From an uncultured Bacteroidales bacterium (GTDB lineage: Bacteria > Bacteroidota > Bacteroidia > Bacteroidales > CAZLJX01): 64,000 nucleotides of DNA. The translations under genes were made by a program, and so were the position numbers. The stretch is taken from NCBI GenBank assembly GCA_964559985.1, contig CAZLJX010000003.1:109416-173415 (forward strand). Direction: 5' to 3'. This document shows, piece by piece, positions 1,994-51,951 of the stretch. Positions within the stretch are counted from its first letter, which is position 1; each line of letters opens with the position of its first letter. A model generated the notes under the pieces. That model made no database searches. It was given only the letters and a program-made list of their open reading frames with translations, and was not told where the DNA came from.

Positions 1994-4900
1994 TTAATCA
2001 AGACTGATGTTGAGTCCAAGTCCTCTGAGTTCATGAAGCAAAACATTGAACGATTCCGGGATTCCGGGTATCGGCATAGCTTCGCCTTTAACGATTGATT
2101 CATACGCCTTTGCCCTGCCTACCACATCATCAGACTTAATGGTCAGGATTTCCTGCAGAATATTGGCAGCACCAAATGCTTCGAGTGCCCATACTTCCAT
2201 TTCACCAAATCGTTGTCCACCAAACTGGGCTTTACCACCAAGTGGTTGCTGGGTGATGAGTGAATATGGTCCAATGGAGCGGGCATGCATTTTATCGTCA
2301 ACCATATGGCCGAGTTTAAGCATATAAATCATGCCCACAGTAGCAGGTTGATGAAAACGTTCGCCGGTACCTCCATCGTATAAATATGTCTTACCGTACT
2401 TGGGCAATCCTGCCTTATCGGTATATTCGGTAATCTGTTCAAGGGTAGCACCGTCAAAAATGGGTGAAGCAAATTTTAACCCAAGGGTCTTTCCTGCCCA
2501 TCCCAGAACAGTTTCGTAAATCTGTCCCAGGTTCATTCGGGATGGTACACCCAGTGGGTTTAAAACGATATCAACCGGTGTTCCGTCCTCAAGGAATGGC
2601 ATGTCTTCAACACGTACAATTCGCGAGACTATCCCTTTATTACCATGGCGACCGGCCATTTTGTCGCCCACCTTGACTTTGCGTTTCTGGGCAATATATA
2701 CTTTGGCAAGCTGAATAATGCCGTTAGGCAATTCATCTCCAATGGTAACGTTGAATTTTTTGCGCTTATAATCACCATCAATTTCTTTGAATTTGATCAT
2801 ATAATTACGCAGCAATTCTTTTATCAGGTTATTTTTATCTTTATCGGTAGTCCACTTATTGGGATTGACATTCAGATAATCTACTTCCTGAAGGATTTTC
2901 TGGGTGAATTTGTTGCCTTTTCCAATAATTTCATTCCCGAAATAATCGCTGACCCCCTGAGAAGTTTTACCATTCACCAGGATAAACAATTTATCGATAA
3001 GTTTTGATTTCAACTCATCGGTTTTGCGTTTAAAATCGTCTTCAATTTTTGTCAGGGCGGGTTTTTCGTTTACTTTTACTTTTTTATCTTTTACGGCACG
3101 TGAAAAGAGCTTTTTATCTATTACCACACCATTGAGCGATGGACCTGCTTTTAAGGAAGCATCTTTAACATCACCTGCTTTATCGCCGAAAATGGCACGT
3201 AGCAGTTTTTCTTCAGGGGAAGGATCGGTTTCACCTTTGGGTGTAATTTTTCCAATCAGGATATCACCTGGTTTTACTTCGGCTCCTATCCGGATAAGGC
3301 CATTTTCGTCGAGGTTTTTGGTAGCTTCTTCACTGACATTGGGAATATCGGATGTAAGTTCTTCCATACCTCTTTTGGTATCTCTTACTTCGAGAATATA
3401 TTCATCAATGTGAATAGAGGTAAAAACATCATCACGAACAACGCGTTCTGAGATTACAATTGCATCCTCAAAATTATAGCCTTTCCAGGGCATGAATGCA
3501 ACTTTCAGGTTTCGTCCAAGTGCCAGTTCGCCTTCAGCTGTACCGTATCCTTCGGTAATAACCTGCCCTTTAACCACTTTTTGACCTTTTCGGACAATAG
3601 GTTTTATATTTACTGTGGTATTCTGGTTGGTTTTTAAAAATTTCAATAGTTGATAATGAACAATATCATCATTAAAACTGACAAATTTTTCTTCGTCGCT
3701 GCGGCTGTACCTGATAACTATTTCATCAGCATCGACATATTCAACAATACCGTCGCCTTCGGCCAGGATAAGATTTCTGGAGTCTACAGCCACACGTCCT
3801 TCAATGCCTGTACCCACAATCGGGGCTTCAGGATTAAGCAGAGGTACTGCCTGGCGCATCATGTTCGAACCCATAAGGGCGCGGTTGGCATCATCATGCT
3901 CGAGAAAAGGAATGAGCGAAGCGGCAATAGAAGCAATCTGGTTAGGAGCCACGTCCATCAGGTGAACTTCTTCGGGTTCAACCACCGGGAAATCACCTTC
4001 GTAACGCGATTTGATACGGTTATCGATAAATTTTCCCGAATCATCGACCAATGCATTGGCCTGGGCAATAATTTTTTCTTCTTCTTCCTCGGCACTCAGG
4101 TAAATCACATCTTCGTTAAGCCTAACATTGCCACTTACAACATTCCGGTAAGGTGTTTCGATAAAACCAAGGTGATTTATTTTTGCATAAACGCATAGCG
4201 AAGATATAAGACCGATATTTGGACCTTCAGGGGTTTCAATAGGGCATAACCGGCCATAATGGGTATAATGAACGTCGCGCACCTCAAATCCGGCTCTTTC
4301 GCGCGAAAGGCCACCAACTCCAAGTGCCGACATACGTCTTTTATGTGTCATTTCGGCAAGCGGATTGGTCTGATCCATAAACTGCGAAAGGGCATTGGTC
4401 CCAAAAAATGAATTGATAACCGATGAAAGGGTTTTTGAATTAATCAGGTCAACGGGTGTAAAAACTTCGTTATCTCTAACATTCATCCTCTCACGAATGG
4501 TACGTGCCATACGGGCAAGACCAATACCAAACTGGTTGTAAAGTTGTTCACCAACTGTTCTTACACGGCGGTTGCTCAGGTGGTCAATATCATCCACATT
4601 CGCCTTACTGTTGATCAATTCAATCAGGTATTTGATAATCTGGATAATATCTTCTTTTGTAAGTACTTTTGTCTCAATAGGAGTATTGAGTTGCAATTTT
4701 TTATTGATCCGGTAACGCCCAACATCCCCAAGGTCGTACCGTTTATCAGAAAAGAACAATTTATCAATTACATCGCGTGCTGTAGCTTCATCGGGGGGTT
4801 CGGAGTTACGTAACTGCCGGTAAATATACAAAACGGCATCTTTTTCCGAATTGCACGGATCTTTTTGTAAAGTATTGTAAATGATTGAATAATCACTATG

Positions 4901-5806
4901 CAGATGCGTTTCTTTATGCAGAATGATGGTTTTTGCCCCTGAGTCGAGAATAGCATCAATATGATCTTCTTCAATGATGGTTTCGCGGTCAAGAATTACT
5001 TCATTTCGTTCGATAGAAACCACTTCTCCGGTATCCTCATCCACAAAATCTTCAATCCACGACCTGAGGACACGTGCAGCGAGTTTGCGTCCAACTACCT
5101 TTTTCAATCCGGTTTTTGATACTTTTATTTCGTCGGCAAGGTCAAAAATCTCAAGAATATCTTTATCACTTTCAAAACCAATAGCACGCAACAATGTGGT
5201 TACGGGCAGTTTTTTCTTACGGTCAATGTAAGCATACATCACGTTGTTGATGTCGGTGGCAAATTCAATCCACGATCCTTTGAAAGGGATAATCCTGGCC
5301 GAGTACAATTTTGTACCATTGGCATGAATACTTTGTCCGAAAAATACTCCCGGTGAACGATGAAGCTGAGAAACAACAACTCTTTCAGCACCATTGATCA
5401 CAAAGGTTCCTTTAGGAGTCATGTATGGAATGGTTCCAAGATAAACTTCCTGAATAACCATATCAAAATCTTCATGTTCGGGGTCGGTACAATAAAGTTT
5501 CAGTTTTGCTTTTACCGGCACACTGTAGGTCAATCCACGTTCAAGGCATTCCTGGATGGCATACCTGGGTGCATCGATGGAATAATCAATAAATTCAAGA
5601 ACAAAATTATTCCTGGTGTCGGAAATGGGAAAATTTTCGCAAAAAACTTTATAAAGGCCCTCTTCTTTTCTTTGTTCGGGAGTAGTATCAATTTGGAAAA
5701 AATCGGCAAATGACTTTAATTGAACTTCAAGGAAATCAGGATAATCCATCAGGTTTTTGGTTCCTGAGAAATTGATCCTCTTATTAATTTTTTGGGTAGA
5801 GGACAT
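1994..5806 (-). CDS. rpoB: DNA-directed RNA polymerase subunit beta
   Basis: Track ORF of 1270 aa with diagnostic beta-subunit blocks ([36 protein letters not shown]). rplL lies upstream and rpoC downstream. Confidence 0.98.
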
Positions 5807-8816: not shown

Positions 8817-8858
8817 CTTTCGGGGGTTATTGTTTTTATTTTAAACCCAAATTTACTG

Positions 8859-8931
8859 CACGGGTGGAGAGACTCGAACTCCCAGCCAACGGTTTTGGAG
8901 ACCGCTACTCTACCAATTGAGCTACACCCGT
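8859..8931 (-). tRNA. tRNA-Trp (anticodon CCA)
   Basis: Folded by hand from the minus-strand read ACGGGTGTAGCTCAATTGGTAGAGTAGCGGTCTCCAAAACCGTTGGCTGGGAGTTCGAGTCTCTCCACCCGTG. Acceptor stem ACGGGTG/CACCCGT, anticodon loop CTCCAAA, T-loop TTCGAGT. At the conserved tuf-tRNATrp-secE position. Confidence 0.92.
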
Positions 8932-8952
8932 AAAAAAATGCCCTTTCGGGCA
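8932..8952 (-). terminator. Rho-independent terminator after tuf
   Basis: The minus strand reads TGCCC-GAAA-GGGCA followed by TTTTTTT, starting 10 nt after the tuf stop codon. Confidence 0.75.
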
Positions 8953-8962
8953 CTTATGTTGA

Positions 8963-10150
8963 TTAGTCCAGAATTTCTGTTACCTGTCCTGCACCTACTG
9001 TACGGCCACCTTCGCGGATTGCAAAACGCAGACCCTGGTTGATAGCTACCGGATAGATCAATTCTACAGTAATGGTAAGGTTATCACCTGGCATTACCAT
9101 TTCAACTCCATCAGGCAACTGAATTTCACCAGTTACATCAAGGGTTCTCAGATAAAATTGCGGACGATATTTGTTATGGAACGGTGTATGACGCCCGCCT
9201 TCTTCTTTTTTCAGAATATAAACCTCAGCCTTGAACAACTTATGAGGAGTTATACTGCCTGGTTTGGCAATAATCATACCACGTTTGATTTCGTCTTTAT
9301 CAACACCACGCAGAAGTAATCCTACGTTATCACCGGCCTGTCCGTCGTCAAGAATTTTGCGGAACATTTCAACACCGGTAACAACAGTTTTCTTACCATC
9401 GGCTGTAAGGCCAATAATCTGAACTTCTTCGCCGGTATGAACGGTACCTGTTTCAATTCTTCCGGTTGCAACAGTGCCACGTCCGGTAATAGAGAAAACG
9501 TCTTCAACGGGCATAAGGAAAGGTTTATCCACATCACGTACCGGAAGCGGTATATATTCGTCAACAGCTTTCATCAGTTCAACAACTTTATCTTCCCATT
9601 TTGCTTCGCCGTTGAGAGCACCAAGTGCAGATCCACGGATAATAGGAGCATTATCGCCGTCAAATTTGTAAAAACTTAATAATTCGCGTACTTCCATTTC
9701 AACAAGGTCGAGCAATTCTTCATCGTCAACCATATCTACTTTGTTAAGAAATACCAAAACTTTCGGAACATTTACCTGGCGTGCCAGAAGGATATGTTCG
9801 CGGGTTTGTGGCATTGGCCCATCAGTAGCAGCTACCACAAGGATAGCACCGTCCATCTGGGCAGCACCAGTAACCATGTTTTTAACATAGTCAGCGTGAC
9901 CAGGACAGTCAACGTGCGCATAGTGACGATTTTCTGTCTGGTATTCAATATGAGCTGTATTAATGGTAATACCGCGTTCTTTTTCTTCCGGAGCATTGTC
10001 GATAGAGTCAAATGACCTGATTTCTGACAAACCTTTTTTTGCAAGTACCATGGTAATTGCAGCAGTAAGGGTGGTCTTGCCATGATCGACGTGACCAATG
10101 GTTCCGATATTAACGTGAGGTTTTGTCCTCTGGAATTGTTCTTTAGCCAT
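8963..10150 (-). CDS. tuf: Elongation factor Tu
   Basis: 395 aa with GTPase motifs [18 protein letters not shown] and NKVD. Near-universal EF-Tu sequence. Confidence 0.99.
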
Positions 10151-10209
10151 AACCTTTATAAATTGATAGTTAGTGATTCATAAACATATTAAAAAAAAAA
10201 ATCTTTTTG

Positions 10210-10281
10210 AGCCAATGATGGGAATTGAACCCATGACCCCTTCCTTACCAAGGAAGTGCTCTACCCCTGAGCTACATCGGC
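10210..10281 (-). tRNA. tRNA-Thr (anticodon GGT)
   Basis: Minus strand GCCGATGTAGCTCAGGGGTAGAGCACTTCCTTGGTAAGGAAGGGGTCATGGGTTCAATTCCCATCATTGGCT. It forms a cloverleaf with anticodon loop TTGGTAA. Confidence 0.9.
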
Positions 10282-10289
10282 TTGAACAG

Positions 10290-10362
<73 letters not shown>

Positions 10363-10396
10363 TTGTCCGGCAGTTTTCACTGCCTGATATATTTTG

Positions 10397-10479
10397 TGGG
10401 GAGAGGAGGAATCGAACCTCCGAAGGCATCAGCCAACAGATTTACAGTCTGCCCCAGTTGACCGCTTTGGTATCTCCCC
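10397..10479 (-). tRNA. tRNA-Tyr (anticodon GTA), long variable arm
   Basis: Minus strand GGGGAGATACCAAAGCGGTCAACTGGGGCAGACTGTAAATCTGTTGGCTGATGCCTTCGGAGGTTCGATTCCTCCTCTCCCCA. Anticodon loop CTGTAAA and a class II variable arm. Confidence 0.9.
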
Positions 10480-10498
10480 TGAATATCATATTTGTCCG

Positions 10499-10572
10499 AG
10501 CCGATGGAGGGATTCGAACCCCCGACCAGCTGATTACAAATCAGCTGCTCTGGCCAGCTGAGCTACATCGGC
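10499..10572 (-). tRNA. tRNA-Thr (anticodon TGT)
   Basis: Minus strand GCCGATGTAGCTCAGCTGGCCAGAGCAGCTGATTTGTAATCAGCTGGTCGGGGGTTCGAATCCCTCCATCGGCT, with anticodon loop TTTGTAA. Confidence 0.9.
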
Positions 10573-42909: not shown

Positions 42910-43647
42910 TCAATTTACAGCATTCAATTTAGATTTTATTTCATTCAGATTTCTGTAAAATAAAATCCTGTATCTTCTTTTAATCCAATATGTTCTATTC
43001 TCATGAATGAGTGAATCAATAACAGTGTTATTCTTTTTTATCACTTCAAGCATTCTATTTAATTTGACGATACTATCCGTGAGTATATGCATTGAATTAC
43101 TGTCTGTAATGTAGAATTTTAGTGTATCTGAGTAGTAAAGAGTATCATGCCGAACTATTATCCTGTTTTGCTGTTTTCCGGTTTTATAAAAAACAGATGA
43201 AGTTTTATAGTACTTATTGTTTTCCAATAGATTGTTTATAGTTAGTTTTGCTTCAGATACGTAATCACCTCCATTTATTTTTTTGACCCGGTTGCCCATC
43301 TGATTGAATATTAATATTGTAGGTGTATAAGTTATACCATCAAGATATCCAAGCATCAACGACACAGGCCTTTTATCATAATCTCTGTCATAACGGTTTT
43401 TTGTCAAGTTAATCTGATGAAGTATAACATATTGATTTTCTTTAAAGTATTTTATTAATTCTTTGTTAATCAGTTTACATGGGCCACATGTATGTGTAGA
43501 ATAAATGAATATATTCACTTTCCCAGGATGACATAAGCTGCTGAGGTTGTAAGCAACCTCACTTCCGTCGTATTCAAAAACAGTGATTTGCGCATTTATA
43601 AATGAGCTAATAAAGGCAAAAATTATTAATATTGTTATTCTTTTCAT
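42910..43647 (-). CDS. Exported thioredoxin-fold protein with C-terminal helical extension
   Basis: 245 aa with a signal peptide MKRITILIIFAFISSFINAQ, a CxxC active-site-like motif THTCGPCK and a cis-Pro-like TPTILIF block. The C-terminal ~100 aa is unassigned. Confidence 0.65.
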   Translation of the reverse strand: MKRITILIIFAFISSFINAQITVFEYDGSEVAYNLSSLCHPGKVNIFIYSTHTCGPCKLINKELIKYFKENQYVILHQINLTKNRYDRDYDKRPVSLMLGYLDGITYTPTILIFNQMGNRVKKINGGDYVSEAKLTINNLLENNKYYKTSSVFYKTGKQQNRIIVRHDTLYYSDTLKFYITDSNSMHILTDSIVKLNRMLEVIKKNNTVIDSLIHENRTYWIKRRYRILFYRNLNEIKSKLNAVN

Positions 43648-43650
43648 TTT

Positions 43651-44265
43651 TTAATTATTATCGTTAAAATCAATACCTGGCATACAACCACATTCACTTA
43701 TAGGTTTGAGAATGAGATTATCATGAGGGCTCCCATCAGGGCAACGCCCATGATAAACGTAGGTTGAATCGTATACTACATTATCTAATTGATAACTAAA
43801 CTCCTGCGTATAATAATACTGGTGGCATTTTGAACACCTATGTATTCTGCTCGGCGCTTTCACAGAGCCTTTACACCAAAATTTTGGGTCCCGGATTAAG
43901 TTTAAAAAATCAGGATGAACGAGCACTAAATCTTTATTCAAAGAATAAGTAAGTATATAAGATTCCCCTTTCCAATCAACAAACTGAAATTCGATGTTTC
44001 GTGCTCGTACCTTTATAACCAAGCCTTTAGCCTTTGCTGATGATGTTTGTATTTTCCCAGCAACATCATAAAATAAGAAAGTCGGATAAATACACTCGTT
44101 TGACAGACTATAATTAGCTGCAGAACTTATGGTTAATAATTCATCATTCGATTTTTGTATAAAGTCATCAACCGACAATGTACAAACTTCCTCATCGCAT
44201 AAAATCTGGCTATAGGTAATTTGGCTGTACATTACAACAATCAGAAAAATTATTTTTGATTTCAT
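43651..44265 (-). CDS. Exported Cys-rich protein, unknown function
   Basis: 204 aa with a signal peptide MKSKIIFLIVVMYSQITYSQ and nine Cys (LCDEEVC, HRCSKCH, GRCPDG, ECGCMPG). Its start overlaps the upstream stop (ATGA at 44262..44265). Confidence 0.6.
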   Translation of the reverse strand: MKSKIIFLIVVMYSQITYSQILCDEEVCTLSVDDFIQKSNDELLTISSAANYSLSNECIYPTFLFYDVAGKIQTSSAKAKGLVIKVRARNIEFQFVDWKGESYILTYSLNKDLVLVHPDFLNLIRDPKFWCKGSVKAPSRIHRCSKCHQYYYTQEFSYQLDNVVYDSTYVYHGRCPDGSPHDNLILKPISECGCMPGIDFNDNN

Positions 44266-45161
44266 GGTATTATTTTATTGAGGTTACTTTTTAATTCAAG
44301 TATTTTCATTAGTTTATCCTTCCGGTCATATTTTAAATAAATGGCTTCCAGGCCATCGTAATAGTGTATCAAACTGTACTTTACAATTTCATCTTGTGGA
44401 TTTTGAAGGAAATACTTTATTAATCTTTGATGAAGCTGACCAGTTTTATTAATATATTTAGTTAAATCTACTCCACGATTTGCCTTTGAATCCAGGTACA
44501 AAATTGAATCGGTAAGGCGATATAAAAGGGCCGATTGATTATGAATTTCTACCCTATTTTCAAGACTTTGAAGCTTACCCATCAGCAAATTATTCGCCAA
44601 ATTCAAGCTATCAATGGTTTTTGAATTTGTTTTTTTAATTCTTTTATTTTTAGCAAATTCTTCATTCATTTTTTCTATAACATGCTGCTTCAGGAGCATT
44701 TCTTCGTGCAAATACTTAAGCGTTCGGCTTCGGCGGGTCTTCTCAGTACCACAATTACAAAACAAGGGATATACAGGTTCAGCATTAATATCTTTCTGCG
44801 CTCCAACCAGCAAATAAACCTGCCCAAAAAAATTTTGCGGAAGAACGGGATATTGACACAAAACTTTATATTGAATAGCGTTTGAGAATTGAACCTGCAT
44901 ATTATTTATTTCTCTTCTTACCCCAACATAATTTATTTTTCTTCCTGTCAATTGGCCAATTTTAAATTCTACATCATCCATAGCATCCAGGTAGGCACTT
45001 TTCATATTAATGCCTGATCCCGAAGCGACAAAAACCTCTATTGTGCTATTACTTGGCGGCTTTTTAAATATCCACCCAGGAAGCTTTTGTGAAAAACCCT
45101 GGGCACAAAAAACACAAAGCATGAAAAAAATGGCAGCTATCAAAACCAGCTGCCATTTCAT
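44262..45161 (-). CDS. Exported protein, LPP20-like N-terminal region plus coiled coil, unknown function
   Basis: Likely start Met13 (MKWQLVLIAAIFFMLCVFCAQG, ATG 45161) rather than 45197. The segment VFVASGSGINMKSAYLDAMDDVEFKIGQL loosely resembles LPP20-type lipoproteins. Confidence 0.5.
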   Translation of the reverse strand: MKWQLVLIAAIFFMLCVFCAQGFSQKLPGWIFKKPPSNSTIEVFVASGSGINMKSAYLDAMDDVEFKIGQLTGRKINYVGVRREINNMQVQFSNAIQYKVLCQYPVLPQNFFGQVYLLVGAQKDINAEPVYPLFCNCGTEKTRRSRTLKYLHEEMLLKQHVIEKMNEEFAKNKRIKKTNSKTIDSLNLANNLLMGKLQSLENRVEIHNQSALLYRLTDSILYLDSKANRGVDLTKYINKTGQLHQRLIKYFLQNPQDEIVKYSLIHYYDGLEAIYLKYDRKDKLMKILELKSNLNKIIP

Positions 45162-45168
45162 TTTCGCT

Positions 45169-45921
45169 TTATTGAATAACCAACGAATCAGCCACATGTT
45201 GTTGCGTTTTATTCAGCTCATTATCAATCTCTTGCCACAGCCTCTCTTCATTAAAATCAACCTCCATTGATTTACGTTGATCGGCTATCGCTTTTTTTAT
45301 CGTTGATTTTCCGACACTAACAGTTATGTAACATTTATAGCTGCCATTTTTTAGCTGAGACATTTCCTGACAGGTAACTTTAAGATACTTGTTAATGGCA
45401 TTCCGGCTCGATTCAAATACTCCCGATTGAATTCTAGATATGTCTTTGGTCGCTCCACCGGCAACGTGAGTGTCAGATAGATACCTCTTTACGCCTTGTT
45501 TATAGGCTCCTGCCCATAATTGCATTAAGTTGGCTTTAGCCTGGCTATAAGCGGTATTATAAGCATCATTTTCCTGAAGTGATACTGATGAAATACCAGT
45601 TGCCCATATAACATCCATTGATGTATCTACCTGAAAACAAGGCACGTAAACAGACCTCTCGTTTACCGGAAGTTGTTTTTTTGCCAAAAAATTGCGTAAT
45701 GCAATCAACTCTGCATTGCGTTTCTCATCCGCAATTTTTGCTTCGAAAAACTGTTGCTTTGATTGTTCAGCCAGCCGTTGCTTTTCCAAAACCTGGCGGG
45801 TTCTTACTATCTCCAGACTATCCTGGATAATTCCACGCCGATACTGGGCGTTTTTTACTACGTTACACCCTATTATAAAAAGGAGGGCGATAACTAAAAT
45901 AATCATTTGTTTCATAGGCAA
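45169..45921 (-). CDS. Lipoprotein, LPP20-like, unknown function
   Basis: 250 aa with a lipobox LLFIIGC. The segment VIWATGISSVSLQENDAYNTAYSQAKANLMQL resembles the LPP20 family pattern. First gene of a four-gene operon. Confidence 0.5.
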   Translation of the reverse strand: MPMKQMIILVIALLFIIGCNVVKNAQYRRGIIQDSLEIVRTRQVLEKQRLAEQSKQQFFEAKIADEKRNAELIALRNFLAKKQLPVNERSVYVPCFQVDTSMDVIWATGISSVSLQENDAYNTAYSQAKANLMQLWAGAYKQGVKRYLSDTHVAGGATKDISRIQSGVFESSRNAINKYLKVTCQEMSQLKNGSYKCYITVSVGKSTIKKAIADQRKSMEVDFNEERLWQEIDNELNKTQQHVADSLVIQ

Positions 45922-45993
45922 TTAATTTTTAATATTTGAGTAATTCCTGTGTCCCGGATTTTGTCTTTGCAGAAGGCTCCGTTTTCCCCCTGT

Positions 45994-46019
45994 TATTTCA
46001 ACTTCCTGGAAATGAAATA
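45994..46019 (-). terminator. Hairpin between the HD-led operon and the exported-protein operon
   Basis: TATTTCA-ac-TTCC-t-GGAA-a-TGAAATA, 12 nt after the stop at 46031. There is no U-tract, so its function is uncertain. Confidence 0.3.
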
Positions 46020-46030
46020 CATCTGATTCT

Positions 46031-46561
46031 TCATATGTTTGATTTGTTAATATTTGATAAAATCGTTTCGACAGTTATTCCAAGTGTGTAAGCAAGAATG
46101 TAACGGTATTCCTTTAGTCTATCGATTTCAAACTTGAGTTGCTTATTCTTTATTCTGTAGGCCAAATTAATTTTTTGGCTTATGTGGTATCGCAAATCAT
46201 TAGTAGATATGCTAATATCACAGTTATTCATACCGTAACAATGCAATTCTTCCTTAAAAAAATACCGGTAACATTCATTAGCAATTCTCAGCAGCGCACC
46301 TTTATCATTATTGAAAGATAAAACGGGCTGGCCTCCTAACTTTATGAGCCTTTTTACTAAAATCGCATACAAAAAGGCAGCCGAAATATCTTTAACCAAC
46401 TGTTTATCAGTAATTAAACTAGACAAAATGGTCACCGGGTGTTCGTAAGCCGGGTTGCTGGCAACTACCCTGATAAATTCAATTATCGCTTCAGAAAGCA
46501 TTTCAAAATCGTCCGCGGTATAAATATGAAGAAAACAATATTTTAAATCTTCCTTTTCCAT
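46031..46561 (-). CDS. Hypothetical cytoplasmic protein (176 aa), third gene of the HD-led operon
   Basis: Track ORF with no signal peptide, TM helix or motif I recognise. Its ATG lies 1 nt after the upstream stop (TAA-T-ATG). Confidence 0.55.
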   Translation of the reverse strand: MEKEDLKYCFLHIYTADDFEMLSEAIIEFIRVVASNPAYEHPVTILSSLITDKQLVKDISAAFLYAILVKRLIKLGGQPVLSFNNDKGALLRIANECYRYFFKEELHCYGMNNCDISISTNDLRYHISQKINLAYRIKNKQLKFEIDRLKEYRYILAYTLGITVETILSNINKSNI

Positions 46562-46562
46562 A

Positions 46563-46931
46563 TTAATTGAGGCTTATCGGTATTAAATTTTCGTAGGCTT
46601 CAGCTATACGCTGAGATAGCTTATATTTTTTTATTTTGTTATTTTTCAACATATTTATGAAAAATGAATCGTTTGCTCTAAAAAGCATCACCTTGCAGGT
46701 AAGATACTTCAGCTCTTCTTCACACAAAAAGAAATTGGGTTTCAGCAATCTCACGATATACAATTGCTCGGTAACCCGACATAGCCATTGATATTCAATT
46801 ACTTGCTTCTTGCTCCAAATAATATTTCCCTGCAGTTTTTCTTCTTCGTATATTAATAATATGAGCAGAAGCTTGTCAATGAGCCATGAAGTAAAGGCAG
46901 CATTTTCTATGTTTTGAACTATCTCTCTCAT
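46563..46931 (-). CDS. Hypothetical cytoplasmic protein (~122 aa), second gene of the HD-led operon
   Basis: The track starts at TTG 46937. ATG 46931 (MREIVQNIE..) is the likelier start. Either lies within 7 nt of the upstream TGA. No recognisable motif. Confidence 0.55.
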   Translation of the reverse strand: MREIVQNIENAAFTSWLIDKLLLILLIYEEEKLQGNIIWSKKQVIEYQWLCRVTEQLYIVRLLKPNFFLCEEELKYLTCKVMLFRANDSFFINMLKNNKIKKYKLSQRIAEAYENLIPISLN

Positions 46932-46938
46932 AATCAAA

Positions 46939-47448
46939 TCAATTTATTAATTTCTCTAATTCCTTGTATAGTAATGGATTATATTTTCCCAGGCGTTCAG
47001 CAAGAAACCGACTTTCGTTTTTGTAATAATTTATTTTGTCCTCACTCCATGATAATCTTGGATTGGTGAGGTTTGCAAGACGGTCAGCCAATTTTACTAC
47101 TGCTGTTTCACGGCAACGTGTTTCAATGATTCTTTCGATACTATCTTCAATCTGATCCGTTTTTTTCAGACTTTTATCTTTGGACAGTCCTAAAACGGCA
47201 GGAAGAATCTCAATAAAGCCATAACGTGTTAAATCGTCGGAGGTGCAAGGGGTGTCTTCAATGATATCGTGCAGATAACCAATGTTAATGGCAAGCTCCA
47301 GATTAAAATCCTGCTTTTTAACATATGTCAATCGCAGAATTTTTTCTATCTTGCAAAGGTGACCATCGTAATAAGATATCCCCTCGGGCAGATAAAACTG
47401 ATTTCGGTGGTACCATTTCGCTAAAAGTTTTGCATTCATATTTGACAT
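46939..47448 (-). CDS. HD-domain protein of the RelA/SpoT hydrolase type (small alarmone hydrolase-like)
   Basis: 169 aa. AKWYHRNQF..YYDGHL, then IGYLHDIIEDTPCT and VKLADRLANL, match the H...HD(x)2ED...D and KLADRL blocks of the (p)ppGpp hydrolase domain. There is no synthetase domain. Confidence 0.65.
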   Translation of the reverse strand: MSNMNAKLLAKWYHRNQFYLPEGISYYDGHLCKIEKILRLTYVKKQDFNLELAINIGYLHDIIEDTPCTSDDLTRYGFIEILPAVLGLSKDKSLKKTDQIEDSIERIIETRCRETAVVKLADRLANLTNPRLSWSEDKINYYKNESRFLAERLGKYNPLLYKELEKLIN

Positions 47449-47453
47449 TTTTG

Positions 47454-47526
47454 ATTCAAATATATTGAATTTTTTTATCCGATATAACTGATAATCAATA
47501 CTTTAACTAGACGTCTATAAGACGTC
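47454..47526. promoter_or_regulatory. Divergent control region with palindromic elements
   Basis: The intergenic region is 87 bp. It holds an inverted repeat ATTCAA-atata-TTGAAT (47454..47470), which contains a minus-strand TATATTTG -7-like box. It also holds two copies of the palindrome GACGTC (47510..47515 and 47521..47526) spaced 11 bp centre to centre, ending 9 nt before the ATG of the large NTPase gene. Confidence 0.35.
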
Positions 47527-47535
47527 CAAACGTAT

Positions 47536-50500
47536 ATGCCACCAAAATCAAATAAACCGATAACATCAACACAAGCAAAGATTTTAATTTTAGAACTCCT
47601 AAAAAATCAGGATCGGGAAATAGCTGATTTATTATATGAATTTCTATCATCACAAAAAGATAAAAACCAAATAAGTAAGCATGCTGCTTTTACAAAAGCA
47701 TATTCAAAACCACAGATTTTTATTGATGATCTACCAAAATTCTCGACTAAAAAAGATCGTAATGAATGGCCAGCATGGCAGAAAATTTTTCATGATTTAA
47801 AACCTGATACCTTCAAATTTGTAGAAAGAAAACCTCCTAATGAGATACGCAAAAAGATAAAGCAATACCTCATAAATCAACAAACAATTAATATCGCTGA
47901 TACGGATTTTTGGTCTCCTTCATTATCTCCCGAACTAAATGTTTTAACCCCAAGGGAGGAAGAAGTTGATAAATTATGCAGCTTTTTATTTAAAAAAAAT
48001 AAAATAACCATCTATTATGGAAACCCCCGTATCGGAAAATCTGAGATAATTAACCAATTGATTAGAAAATTAAAAAAAACTGAAAATAATTTCAGATACC
48101 GGATCCTGGATTGCAAGACGATAGATATAAGTGAAGAAAAACCATTTAGCAAAACCGATGATTTTTTTATGCGCCTGATTGATAATACCAGGTACTTGCT
48201 TATCTTAGAAAATGCTGAAGTACTTAATTTTAATAATTCAAAAATTGGTAGTTTTTTAAGTCGGTTGGCAGACCAAAGCAACAATAAGCAATTGAATTTA
48301 TTGATCATAAGCAGAATTAGAAATGATATTTTAAGTGTTGATAATGAGCATCTTAATATAATTGAATCGGAGCAATTCATCAACCCTGAAATTTTAAATA
48401 ATATTAAACAAATAATAAATAATGATGGTATTTTTATTACATTGATTGAACTTTATGACCATCACCGGCTGCACGTTGGCTTGTTGCAGAAAATAAAGCA
48501 ATCAGAAAATGAGGTTGGCCAATTATTAGAAATGGCTGAGAATAAAGATGTACTTAACCTGCTTAAAGATGATTATGCCGAACAATTCAATACTTTAAAT
48601 GATCCCGAGAAAAAATTCTTCATTACCAGCATTATAACCGGTAAAGTAGTTTTGAAAACAAACAATGATAAAGTCATCGCAAATAGCATTTGTTCAAAGG
48701 GCCTTTTTGACCGGACTTATAATAATGGCTATATCATTCATCCATACATTGCTGAAATAGCTTTTGAATTTTATAAAGAAAAAAAAGAGCTACATAAGAT
48801 TGCTGAACTAATTGTAACAGAATTAAACTTTAACGGGTCTTACTTTGAAAGCTTTATTATCTGTGCTAAATGTGATTTGACTAGTATTGATAACGAAGTA
48901 AAAGATTATATCACGCATTGTACCTTAAAGGAAATCAAGCACTTGAGCTCAGACCCTAACTATAATGTCGTTATTCTAAAAGCTATTATTAAATATAACA
49001 CAGATAAAGCCTTGCTGTTACTACTGGCTGAAAATTATAGATTGGCCGGGAAACTTTCTGAAGCAACTACCTACTTAGATAAAGTCAAAGATGATAAAAC
49101 AATGGCTTTTGGTTACAATACCGAATTGGGTTTTTATTTTAACGCAAAGGCTAATGAATCAAGATCAAACAATGATAAAGAGAAATATATAACATTCGCA
49201 AAAGGAGCTTTCGAAAAAGCAATTTCACTTCCATTAACTGAAAAACTTGCAGGCGAGAATGCCATCAACCGTTATCTTCAGCCTGTAATTGGTTTATATA
49301 ATTTAAATCCAGCCCCGGAAAAACAATTTGAAATCCTTTTTAACGCCTTTTGCGACCTGCATGCATATGACCAGAATTTGCCATTATATTATTTTGAGAA
49401 ATTAACTGCTTTTTTAAATACCCAACATACTCTTAATCAAAACTTTACAAAGTTCACGGAGTGTATCATATTTTATAAAAACAGGAAATTTAAAAAAGCC
49501 TATGCGATAATTCAAGAACTCGATAAAATCTCATTATTCAGTCAACAATTAATTTTTATCAATATTAAAGCCGCAGGCCTTAGAACATCGAACCCAGAAG
49601 AATCAGAAAAACTGCTTAAATCAAGTATTGAAAAAGAGAATAATGCAGAATACAACAGAATGGCATACAGGGAATTATTATTGACTTACTTTGTTAATGG
49701 TATGCTCAATAAGATTGAGTCAGATTCAGCTTTAAAATCAAATCAAGATATAATCGTTGAGGTTGCCCTGGAAGCACCTATTTGGTGGTTTGCAAAAATT
49801 ACTGACAACAATAAAAAAATAAAAGTACTTACATTCTTTAATAATAATTATAAGGAGGAGTTTAAAAATAACGGTTTATCAGACTGGTTATATGCCCAGA
49901 TAATCAAATCTTTTTTAGATGCAGGCATTAATGAAATTGATAAATACCTGCACGAACCTTGTATTCCTGATCCAAAGTCTTTTTCTGACCAAGAAGTTAA
50001 AAAAATAATTCCCATTTTACAATCTAAAATTATCGATAACCCAGATTTAATCTACCCACTGGCTCTTTTTTCATCCACCAATCAACATTATGAACAATTA
50101 CTCAGTTATTGTAATGAAATCTCAACTTTTAATGCAGAAAATTATCATTTTTTAAAATTGCTATGCAAATTAGCTGTAGACTTAAAAGACGAAAAATATA
50201 TTCCCCAACTTTCAAAAATTGATTCTTCAATTGCCAAAAATTTTTCTTATGAATTTTACCATGCAGCATTAATACTTGAAAAAACAGGCAAATATAGCTT
50301 GGCTGATGATTTTTTTAACAAAGCCATACTTCATGCATCTGAACCCGATTTTAATATGTTCTTTCATTATGCCTTCTATCTTTTAAGAAATTCAGATGTA
50401 AGTAACTTTAAAGTTCAAATTAGTGAGGCAAAAAAAAGCTGGATGTCTTCAAGATTACCAACCGACCGCCAGAGTAAACATCATGAAAAATGGTTCAATT

Positions 50501-51951
50501 TGCTCATCAAAAGCTATTTTATTAATTATGGCTTTTTCATTCATAGACCCGATAGAAATTTATTAACTAAATATAAGTCAGAGATCGATAATATTAAAAA
50601 TGAATATGATATTGATGTTAACGTGCTATACTACAGGTGGTTTGCTGACAATGGCAGTGAAAAAGAAAAAAAAGCAAATATTATAAAATTGAACAATTGG
50701 TGTAAGGATAACAAGCAATACTGGCCAACCCAAGGATTGACAGTTCAAAACTCAACAGAAATTATAAACAGTGAATCAGAAAAAGAAAAGTCTACTCATG
50801 AAAATACCTATAATCAAGCAAATAAACATTTCAACGATGGTTCTTATTCAAACGCTTTTGATTTATATTTAAAACTGGCTTTTGAAGGTTATTCACCTGA
50901 CAACAATAGGAAACAGGTGTTTTTTAATAATTTAATTTTTAGCAGTATAAGATCAGGAAAAGAAATTAATATTGCCGATATCCATGAAGAATTGTTGTTA
51001 GATGTGGGAAAAACCTATAAAAGTCTAAAGATAATGGATAAAAACATTGAATGTTTAGAAAAAATACCATCAAACCATAAAGATTATTATTCCTCATCTG
51101 TCATTCTTGCCAGAATATATCTCGAAGAAAACAATCTTATTGAAGCTGGCAAATATTTAAAAATCAATAAACTAAATAAAAAAGATCCGGAAAGTTTAAT
51201 AACCTATGCAGCACTGCTGGATGCTAAAAATAATTTTAAAGAAGCACTTACTTGCATAGACATGGCATTCAACAGCACACACGATTATGGCACATTAAAA
51301 TACAGGAGAAATCTGATTAAACGACATCCTGATGCTTTTCAATCTGATGAAAAGAAAATTACAGAGCTATTATACAAAATTGTACCGTTTATTAAGAATA
51401 AAAATTATAATTTATCCGATACGCAAATCATTGATTTAATAAGCTTAACAAAAAAACATCCTGATCATTTTGTGCTGGCCAGAAAAGCACTTCATATTAT
51501 TAATCATACAAGTAATGGATCAGGGCTAAAAAATTATGACGAAGAATTTGCAGAAATATTAGTCAACCATTACTTCTTTGGGATTTCTGAATTTTATAAA
51601 TTTTCTGTTTATATGAATGCCCCTGATGATGAATATTTTCATTTTTACAGAATGTTGGGTAACTTCTGCAAAGGGTGTAAATACTATCATATAGCCGAGT
51701 ACTTTTACCAGCATGCCTTATCAGTCATTAAAAATGATAAAAATAAAAAAGGTGTGATCAATTTAAACCTTGCCCTTCTGTACTATGAAAAAATTAAAAA
51801 TCACCAATCAGAAGATGAATTGAGGAAATTAAATTTGTTTAAATCAGAGGCAGAAAAATACTTTACAGAAACACGCAATAATGAAAAGCTTGTTCATTGC
51901 AACAATTTAACACTTGATTTAAATAAATTGAATCATGTGAATGATAATTAA
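47536..51951 (+). CDS. Giant STAND/AAA_16-type P-loop NTPase with long TPR-like C-terminal region
   Basis: 1471 aa. LTPREEEVDKLCSFL precedes the Walker A motif GNPRIGKS (48019..48042), and a Walker B-like YLLILENAE lies at 48196..48210. About 1100 aa of helical repeat sequence with TPR-like units follows (e.g. AENYRLAGKLSEATTYLDKV, ILARIYLEENNLIEAGKYLKI, NLALLYYEKIKN). The N-terminal ~140 aa is unassigned. Confidence 0.7.
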   Translation: MPPKSNKPITSTQAKILILELLKNQDREIADLLYEFLSSQKDKNQISKHAAFTKAYSKPQIFIDDLPKFSTKKDRNEWPAWQKIFHDLKPDTFKFVERKPPNEIRKKIKQYLINQQTINIADTDFWSPSLSPELNVLTPREEEVDKLCSFLFKKNKITIYYGNPRIGKSEIINQLIRKLKKTENNFRYRILDCKTIDISEEKPFSKTDDFFMRLIDNTRYLLILENAEVLNFNNSKIGSFLSRLADQSNNKQLNLLIISRIRNDILSVDNEHLNIIESEQFINPEILNNIKQIINNDGIFITLIELYDHHRLHVGLLQKIKQSENEVGQLLEMAENKDVLNLLKDDYAEQFNTLNDPEKKFFITSIITGKVVLKTNNDKVIANSICSKGLFDRTYNNGYIIHPYIAEIAFEFYKEKKELHKIAELIVTELNFNGSYFESFIICAKCDLTSIDNEVKDYITHCTLKEIKHLSSDPNYNVVILKAIIKYNTDKALLLLLAENYRLAGKLSEATTYLDKVKDDKTMAFGYNTELGFYFNAKANESRSNNDKEKYITFAKGAFEKAISLPLTEKLAGENAINRYLQPVIGLYNLNPAPEKQFEILFNAFCDLHAYDQNLPLYYFEKLTAFLNTQHTLNQNFTKFTECIIFYKNRKFKKAYAIIQELDKISLFSQQLIFINIKAAGLRTSNPEESEKLLKSSIEKENNAEYNRMAYRELLLTYFVNGMLNKIESDSALKSNQDIIVEVALEAPIWWFAKITDNNKKIKVLTFFNNNYKEEFKNNGLSDWLYAQIIKSFLDAGINEIDKYLHEPCIPDPKSFSDQEVKKIIPILQSKIIDNPDLIYPLALFSSTNQHYEQLLSYCNEISTFNAENYHFLKLLCKLAVDLKDEKYIPQLSKIDSSIAKNFSYEFYHAALILEKTGKYSLADDFFNKAILHASEPDFNMFFHYAFYLLRNSDVSNFKVQISEAKKSWMSSRLPTDRQSKHHEKWFNLLIKSYFINYGFFIHRPDRNLLTKYKSEIDNIKNEYDIDVNVLYYRWFADNGSEKEKKANIIKLNNWCKDNKQYWPTQGLTVQNSTEIINSESEKEKSTHENTYNQANKHFNDGSYSNAFDLYLKLAFEGYSPDNNRKQVFFNNLIFSSIRSGKEINIADIHEELLLDVGKTYKSLKIMDKNIECLEKIPSNHKDYYSSSVILARIYLEENNLIEAGKYLKINKLNKKDPESLITYAALLDAKNNFKEALTCIDMAFNSTHDYGTLKYRRNLIKRHPDAFQSDEKKITELLYKIVPFIKNKNYNLSDTQIIDLISLTKKHPDHFVLARKALHIINHTSNGSGLKNYDEEFAEILVNHYFFGISEFYKFSVYMNAPDDEYFHFYRMLGNFCKGCKYYHIAEYFYQHALSVIKNDKNKKGVINLNLALLYYEKIKNHQSEDELRKLNLFKSEAEKYFTETRNNEKLVHCNNLTLDLNKLNHVNDN

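Follow-up and report, generated by a model that had tools for sequence, protein, structure and literature searches.

We analysed a stretch of 64,000 nucleotides (hereafter the window) from contig CAZLJX010000003.1 of an uncultured Bacteroidales bacterium (GenBank assembly GCA_964559985.1), with the focus on one large gene at positions 47536..51951 of the + strand. The gene is a complete open reading frame (ORF) with an ATG start, encoding 1471 amino acids (aa) followed by a stop codon, and its GC content is 30.0% (27% at third codon positions) vs 38.9% for the window. Because stop codons are frequent in DNA so AT-rich, an open frame of 1471 codons cannot, judging from composition, have arisen by chance. 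A preliminary description of this DNA had presented the product as a nucleoside triphosphatase (NTPase) of the STAND type (ATPases that act in signal transduction and have many domains) with about 160 aa before its P-loop; the single 1471-aa ORF was confirmed, as was the position of the P-loop, whose Walker A motif occurs once, at residues 162-169. The protein would have a tripartite layout: an N-terminal output domain of ~137 aa, an NTPase module at residues ~138-440, and ~1000 aa of degenerate helical repeats. The N-terminal domain was placed at residues ~1-137 because a helix with the sequence REEEVDKL, of the type usual at the opening of such NTPase domains, starts at residue 140. Two features of the gene are unusual: its product has no detectable homologues at all, and missense changes have accumulated between strains at the neutral rate with the reading frame strictly preserved.

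The putative NTPase module contains three recognisable motifs. The Walker A P-loop GNPRIGKS (residues 162-169; 48019..48042, + strand) is the sole G....GK[ST] motif in the protein, and its G and GKS are invariant in three strains of the species described below, with an R165C replacement in strain C. It is followed by a Walker B-like strand, LLILEN (residues 221-226; 48196..48213, + strand), and by a sensor-1-like LLIISR (residues 255-260; 48298..48315, + strand) that resembles the STAND "hhhTSR" strand-4 motif, both invariant in the three strains. The order and spacing of Walker A, the Walker B-like strand and hhhSR are as expected of STAND/AAA+ ATPases. A Walker A motif alone was found in 1% of shuffles of the same protein, and the ordered set of Walker A, hhhh[DE] and hhh[ST]R in 0 of 20,000. 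The STAND class as defined by Leipe et al. 2004 reportedly has a Walker A of the form GxxxxGK[ST], a Walker B of the form hhhhD[D/E] and a strand-4 Arg (hhhT/S-R), and is said to include further a GxP helical domain, a winged helix and C-terminal repeats (TPR, WD40, LRR and others). Residues 301-440 (48436..48855, + strand) were taken, by eye only, as the helical and winged-helix part of the module: residues 354-413 (LNDPEKKFFITSI...YIIHPYIAEIAFEFY) look like the STAND winged-helix pattern with a conserved His, and the stretch YIIHPYIAEIAF (residues 399-410; 48730-48765, + strand) was likewise assigned to this part. The STAND label is based on the motif order together with sub-threshold profile matches, and the fold is a prediction.

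Profile searches were performed with the whole protein against Pfam, NCBIfam, PADLOC and PHROGs, and Pfam was also run on five separate segments of the protein at E ≤ 10. The best whole-protein Pfam matches were TPR_19, ARM_TT21 and ATPase_2, none above its curated cut-off; NCBIfam returned nothing useful, and PHROGs returned one uncharacterised family (E 2.4e-4). With the NTPase segment, all matches were again sub-threshold (bits vs cut-off: ATPase_2, 20.1 vs 33.2; nSTAND3, 15.8 vs 27.2; nSTAND6, 15.9 vs 27.7; NB-ARC, 12.3 vs 23.5; AAA_14 and AAA_22 also below theirs), and they recurred in the strain variants (ATPase_2 in 3/3, nSTAND3 and nSTAND6 each in 2/3). The description as STAND-type agrees with the motif order, but no STAND-class profile reached its curated cut-off; the preliminary description had named such a failure as grounds for refutation, and by that standard profiles do not confirm the label.

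No family or fold was assigned by profile scans or Foldseek to the N-terminal region (residues 1-137; 47536..47946, + strand), which is basic (isoelectric point, pI, 9.5) and for which helices at residues 11-23, 27-40, 49-53, 72-87 and 101-114 and strands at 60-62 and 94-96 were predicted with low confidence. Residues 1-140 gave no helix-turn-helix (HTH), winged-helix, nuclease, TIR, SIR2 or protease match in Pfam at E ≤ 10, no HTH family was matched by any of the five segments, and the PADLOC, NCBIfam, PHROG and Protein Data Bank (PDB) sequence scans of the whole protein returned nothing for the N-terminal region and no effector family. The earlier reading of the N-terminus, by eye, as free of nuclease, TIR, SIR2, protease and HTH motifs is therefore borne out.

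The C-terminal ~1030 residues (48856..51948, + strand) are poor in Gly and Pro and were presumed to form degenerate alpha-helical repeats, with weak TPR-like (tetratricopeptide repeat-like) matches at residues 482-519, 907-933 and 1167-1250. Gly plus Pro make up ~5% of the protein, a low content that would suit helices. In a scan of the C-terminal third alone, a short ARM_TT21/TPR-like match (residues 1167-1200) narrowly exceeded its cut-off (28.1 vs 27 bits). The preliminary description had everything after the NTPase module as helical/TPR repeat; this match and the low Gly plus Pro content give it weak support, but the TPR_19, TPR_12 and ANAPC3 matches were all sub-threshold, and no significant repeat period was detected, including the regular 34-residue TPR periodicity (best lag z ≤ 3).

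Structures were predicted with AlphaFold2 from the single sequence, without an alignment, and the confidence (predicted local distance difference test, pLDDT) reached only 50 in residues 1-140 and 34 in residues 129-470, both unusable. In the latter, low-confidence model, strands are predicted at ITIYY (before the P-loop), LLILE and NLLIISR, which would be the expected strands 1, 3 and 4. Foldseek with this model ranked Avs4 first (8dgf, E 8e-3), followed by the AAA+ proteins NSF, ORC and RFC, none significant; the ranking is compatible with an ASCE/STAND-type fold and is not evidence for such a fold. For the N-terminal model, no Foldseek hit in PDB or BFVD had an E value below 0.9; the structure search proposed earlier for the N-terminus recognised nothing, with a model that was itself unusable. 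The observation in the preliminary description was largely correct. It offered two options, a new effector or adaptor at the N-terminus and signalling to separately encoded partners, and the present data do not separate them.

Homologues were sought in protein, genome and metagenome collections. A word-index search of the full protein against 5.8e9 protein clusters and an exhaustive phmmer search of residues 1-1200 against 1.84e9 representatives each recovered the protein itself only. A word-index search of residues 129-440 at E ≤ 10 returned no sequence at all, its own parent included, and results of this method are to be read with that caveat. Sequence searches of PDB, run with the single sequence as well as a profile built from three strains, gave nothing relevant (only weak irrelevant matches with the profile), tblastn and megablast against plasmids gave nothing meaningful, scans of GTDB representative genomes, JGI metagenomes and IMG/VR viral contigs found no relative, and neither did phmmer against 34 Bacteroidota rnhB loci. 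The strain copies cut by contig ends (641 and 957 aa) are absent from the protein collections, and long genes on fragmentary assemblies are under-represented there. Because such contig-cut products are missing and the NTPase-only search missed its own parent, the absence of homologues weighs less than the size of the databases suggests. By these sequence comparisons the entire protein is an orphan, below the detection limit of current profiles. The N-terminus does lack a recognisable effector, as previously described, but the contrast drawn with a recognisable STAND core does not hold, since the NTPase is an orphan as well; for the same reason, the unrecognised residues 1-137 say little on the novelty of the output domain. 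The protein would be a P-loop ATPase of the STAND/AAA+ (ASCE) kind, highly divergent and restricted to one lineage; as a STAND-like NTPase with a tripartite layout it would fall outside every family described so far.

Variants of the same locus were found through a protein 95% identical to the hydrolase encoded beside the gene, the cluster membership of neighbouring genes and contig look-ups. Four contigs carry parts of the gene: L036 (first 641 codons), L040 (last 394 codons, starting at codon 1078, from the same sample as L036), L037 (first 957 codons) and L038 (first 148 codons), and gene order is identical across the four. The ratio of nonsynonymous to synonymous divergence (dN/dS) was calculated by the Nei-Gojobori method among 3-4 strains of one species, with the window strain as strain A. 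For A/B, dS was 0.087 and dN 0.100 over 640 codons (dN/dS 1.15); for A/C, dS was 0.067 and dN 0.058 over 949 codons (dN/dS 0.87); and dN/dS was 0.98 for B/C and 0.86 for the C-terminal 390 codons of A/B. In the same strain pairs, dN/dS was 0.03-0.22 for crp, gcvH, GH25, the ribonucleotide reductase gene, kdtA, rnhB and ispD, and 0.13-0.56 for genes of the low-GC island described below. The excess of the large gene lies in dN, because the dS values of flank and island genes are in a similar range. Differences were spread evenly over the three codon positions (69/55/52, 55/58/51 and 22/24/22), as expected without selection on missense change, and, compared with random replacements, the missense changes were only slightly more conservative (P = 0.07, 0.05 and 0.34).

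The contigs of all three other samples break inside the large gene though the flanking genes assemble, and one of these contigs is 39.9 kb long. The breaks may reflect several co-existing alleles in the samples, or low coverage of very AT-rich DNA; the indication is circumstantial.

The reading frame itself has not been lost in any strain. About 5-6% of neutral mutations in the gene would yield a stop codon, and simulation with the observed mutation spectrum gave 8.4 and 8.7 expected stops for the two long comparisons, with probabilities of 0 and 0.0004 of finding none. No stop was observed in the alignments of 640 codons (P ≤ 0.0004), 949 codons (P ≤ 0.0004) and 390 codons (P = 0.02), and the indels between strains were multiples of three in 8/8 cases. 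The gene is therefore kept open by selection. A decaying, non-functional gene, either a recent pseudogene or a silenced foreign gene drifting neutrally, could account for a dN/dS of ~1, for equal substitution counts at the three codon positions and for an AT-rich gene without homologues; it is at odds with the absence of stops where ~8 are expected per strain pair, with eight in-frame indels, and with an upstream region and start codon that are conserved in four strains, and we consider this explanation nearly excluded.

Substitutions are not uniformly distributed along the gene. They are clumped (dispersion index 4.9), with hot spots at codons 41-80 and 321-420, and codons hit more than once are in excess (26 observed vs 14.7 expected). 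The first hot spot is a hypervariable patch (residues 41-80; 47656..47775, + strand) in which A and B differ at 29 nucleotides over 40 codons and strain C has an indel of three codons. At the other extreme, an invariant block at residues 562-601 (AISLPLTEKLAGENAINRYLQPVIGLYNLNPAPEKQFEIL; 49219..49338, + strand) has zero nucleotide differences in any strain pair. The clumping points to a mix of constrained parts and parts that change freely or adaptively, and recombination between alleles possibly contributes, as regional dS co-varies with dN.

These data bear on a reading in which the protein is a P-loop ATPase with helical repeats in a non-conflict role, such as a scaffold or a chaperone-like assembly factor, under very weak constraint in which only bulk helical structure matters. 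The flat codon-position spectrum, a dN/dS near 1 through the NTPase module and missense changes barely more conservative than random are in keeping with it; the gene has no defence neighbourhood, and 391 of 589 STAND clades are not defence-associated (PMC13581612). Uniform relaxation is nevertheless argued against by the clumped substitutions, the invariant 40-codon block and the multi-hit excess, and a housekeeping role is hard to reconcile with the restriction to one species-level lineage, the low GC content and the absence of the gene from 34 related Bacteroidota loci. We regard such a role as fairly unlikely.

Our preferred reading, held tentatively and with somewhat less than even confidence, is that of a lineage-specific, diversifying STAND-like sensor of the Avs/NLR type, with helical repeats and an unassigned N-terminal output. 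The helical region would bind a foreign ligand, nucleotide-dependent oligomerisation would come next, and the clustered N-terminal domains would deliver the output, whatever the activity of residues 1-137 may be, directly or via a recruited partner. An arms-race (immune-type) sensor would fit the strain data because amino acids turn over almost freely between strains and the frame is never lost. Also in favour of the reading are the ordered motifs and their invariance, the recurring sub-threshold ATPase_2, AAA and nSTAND matches with the non-significant Avs4 ranking, the clumped substitutions, the orphan status, the position at the edge of a low-GC island, the absence of the gene beside rnhB in 34 other Bacteroidota, and the tripartite layout of Avs proteins.

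Several observations weigh against the sensor reading. At the level of profiles and structure, the whole protein, NTPase included, had no match above cut-off in Pfam, NCBIfam, PADLOC or PHROGs; the only PADLOC match, mad8 (E 1.3e-3, 16.3 bits), was not significant; hhalign against E. coli MalT gave a probability of 0.3%, and a relationship with MalT was rejected; and both AlphaFold2 models fall far below a usable pLDDT. The motifs also depart from the expected pattern: the first acidic residue of the Walker B-like strand is E225, N226 occupies the usual second acidic position and the next acidic residue is E228, and a G.P motif is absent from residues 301-360, where the corresponding conserved stretch is LYDHHRLH[VF]GLLQKIK. 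The GxP motif is missing from some STAND clades. A scan of eight neighbouring proteins against PADLOC found no known defence family and nothing beyond AbiLii at E 0.019. Among the strain data, the NTPase module itself evolves at a dN/dS of at least 1, and variability is highest in the N-terminal third of the protein, not in the putative C-terminal sensor. NLR and Avs receptors would be expected to vary most in the sensor, the opposite of the pattern here. With missense changes only slightly more conservative than random (P ~0.05-0.07), most residues may simply be unconstrained, and the evolutionary evidence all comes from 3-4 strains of one species.

The large gene lies among ordinary chromosomal genes of a Gram-negative bacterium: upstream are genes for an H+-PPase, an epimerase, a GH25 protein and a Crp-like regulator, together with gcvH and ispD; downstream are rnhB (convergent with the large gene), an uncharacterised gene for 248 aa, and genes for a Kdo transferase, a ribonucleotide reductase and PAS/GAF sensors. 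The RNase HII encoded by rnhB reaches no more than 66% identity with proteins of Odoribacter, Rikenellaceae and other Bacteroidota metagenome-assembled genomes, and on this comparison the host is a poorly sampled member of the Bacteroidota; 34 other Bacteroidota rnhB loci showed no synteny with the locus in the window. Elsewhere in the window and unrelated to the large gene, a tRNA cluster at 8858-10572 (- strand) has the order Thr-Tyr-Gly-Thr, a 395-aa ORF (8963-10150) that is likely tuf, judged by its position, and tRNA-Trp; a 1270-aa ORF lies at 1994-5806.

The large gene closes a low-GC island at ~42910-51951, in which the GC fraction of genes is 0.295-0.394 vs 0.39-0.44 in the flanks. The island also holds four uncharacterised proteins with signal-peptide-like N-termini and a tight three-gene operon that is divergent from the large gene. 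The four genes (42910-45921, - strand; 3531-5780 on L036) encode signal-peptide- or lipoprotein-like N-termini, and one product has a weak thioredoxin-like match. In three of them, dS between A and B was 0.39, 1.25 and 0.66 vs 0.06-0.18 in flanking genes, and a 311-aa protein is 63% identical; this high synonymous divergence suggests allele replacement by recombination in that part of the island. No diversity-generating retroelement, template/variable repeat pair or mobile-element terminal repeat was found.

The divergent operon is headed by a stand-alone small alarmone hydrolase with a SpoT/Mesh1-type HD domain (46939..47448, - strand). Along its full length, the hydrolase matched small alarmone hydrolases and Mesh1 in PDB (E 1e-11 for 6yvc, 6z3n and 6z3o; E 2e-8 for 3nqw). 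It also matched the profiles TIGR00691 (3e-9) and phrog_990 (9e-19), and its dN/dS of 0.17-0.29 indicates ordinary purifying selection. Two tightly packed uncharacterised ORFs of 124 and 176 aa (46563-46937 and 46031-46561, - strand) lie downstream and presumably belong to the same operon. The operon is a possible separately encoded partner or regulatory target of the large protein, on the basis of adjacency in strains of one species. A bolder proposal can be built on this adjacency: the protein would represent a new family of pattern-recognition ATPases whose N-terminus is a new output module coupled to the hydrolase operon, so that sensing of an invader would lead to a change in (p)ppGpp/(p)ppApp-type signalling and not to killing by a nuclease or NADase. 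We consider this distinctly improbable.

The intergenic region between the two divergent transcription units is 87 bp long and 94% conserved. It contains AGACGTCTATAAGACGTC (47509..47526, + strand), two palindromic GACGTC sites 11 bp apart, which ends 10 nucleotides before the start codon of the large gene. AGACGTCTATAAGACGTC is identical in four strains though the adjacent coding sequence varies freely, the whole 64 kb has only one GACGTC site besides this pair, and the same sequence can form an RNA hairpin of 7 bp (-8.8 kcal/mol, z -2.8). The pair is a candidate operator or leader structure. In the same region, the window strain lacks, at 47484-47485, a 10-bp stretch (ACAACATTAT/A) that is present in L036, L037 and L038.

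The main rival of the sensor reading is a transcription regulator of the MalT/AfsR/GutR kind that responds to a signal, in which the basic N-terminal helices would bind the GACGTC pair and control the gene itself and/or the hydrolase operon, and the helical repeats would sense a ligand. The divergent arrangement with a three-gene operon headed by a small alarmone hydrolase, the conserved and locally rare palindromes one helical turn apart, and a basic N-terminus (pI 9.5) with three predicted helices followed by a strand (low confidence) are in keeping with such a regulator. Residues 1-140, however, lacked any HTH or winged-helix match at a threshold as loose as E ≤ 10, and the comparison with MalT was negative. 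The segment that would serve as recognition helix (residues ~44-58) falls within the protein's most variable patch, with an indel in the linker before it, while the DNA motif is invariant; in a dedicated regulator, a dN/dS close to 1 would be unusual, and the GACGTC pair is equally explicable as a hairpin in the RNA of the 5' leader. On balance the regulator is fairly unlikely, and what probability the accounts given here leave is reserved for explanations that were not considered.

Further candidate roles of the N-terminus were tried and rejected. For an adaptor of the effector-associated domain (EAD) type shared with a neighbour, the N-terminal profile was compared with seven island proteins, and the hhalign probability was <1%. 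For a second copy of the N-terminal domain, a hidden Markov model search of all ORFs of at least 50 aa in the 64-kb window returned the protein itself only. For a RelA/SpoT-type synthetase with the hydrolase as its antitoxin, no RelA_SpoT profile matched, and neither DxxGxR nor EhQhRT was seen by eye in the 137 aa.

If the immune-sensor reading is true, the gene represents a family of STAND-like receptors to which all present profile libraries are blind; fast-evolving, species-restricted immune diversity would then escape homology-based defence finders, especially in Bacteroidota, and there would be a new N-terminal output domain to characterise. Should the protein instead be a scaffold under weak constraint, or a regulator, the result would matter only locally. 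Whatever the function, neutral-rate missense change over more than 1000 codons with nonsense and frameshift mutations fully excluded makes the gene a test case for diversifying selection vs tolerance.

Prokaryotic STANDs have been sorted into 589 clades, of which 198 are defence-associated and 391 (about two thirds) are not, and known effectors occur in at least half of the members in 86 clades (PMC13581612). By these counts, a STAND without a recognisable effector is common and not exceptional. Among known systems, Avs/AVAST proteins, which have a tripartite layout (PMC13581612), resemble the present protein in size (1471 aa vs chains of 1534-1541 residues for Avs4, PDB 8dgf), in combining a short N-terminal domain, a P-loop NTPase and a long, presumably helical C-terminal region within a single-gene unit, and in patchy distribution, low-GC DNA and fast evolution. 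They differ in that the present protein is not significantly similar, by sequence or by profile, to any Avs or PADLOC model and has no recognisable effector (Pfam, residues 1-140) and no defence-island neighbours (eight scanned), in that its variation is concentrated in the N-terminal third and not in the sensor, and in that its Walker B reads E-N instead of two acidic residues.

The nSTAND1-6 families and the archaeal ATPase_2 (PF01637) gave the best recurring sub-threshold matches, which extend from Walker A to Walker B, and they share a helix of the REEEVDKL type before strand 1; the scores of the present protein are all 7-14 bits below the curated cut-offs, and membership is thus not established. 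STAND regulators (MalT; AfsR/SARP; GutR) combine an NTPase with helical or TPR-like repeats, as is presumed of the present protein, and the divergent operon and conserved palindromic pair in the shared promoter region add to the likeness here, whereas no LuxR, OmpR or other HTH was detected and the evolutionary rate is far above that of neighbouring genes. EADs and bacterial Death-like adaptors have been described on STAND and ternary conflict systems (Kaur et al. 2020, PMC7159879; 2021, PMC8195603). The second copy by which such a domain is defined, carried by a neighbouring effector gene, occurs neither in the island nor elsewhere in the 64-kb window, and there is no Pfam match, but the likeness lies in the layout: as in those systems, a small, apparently non-enzymatic, mostly helical domain would stand at the N-terminus of a STAND-like core.

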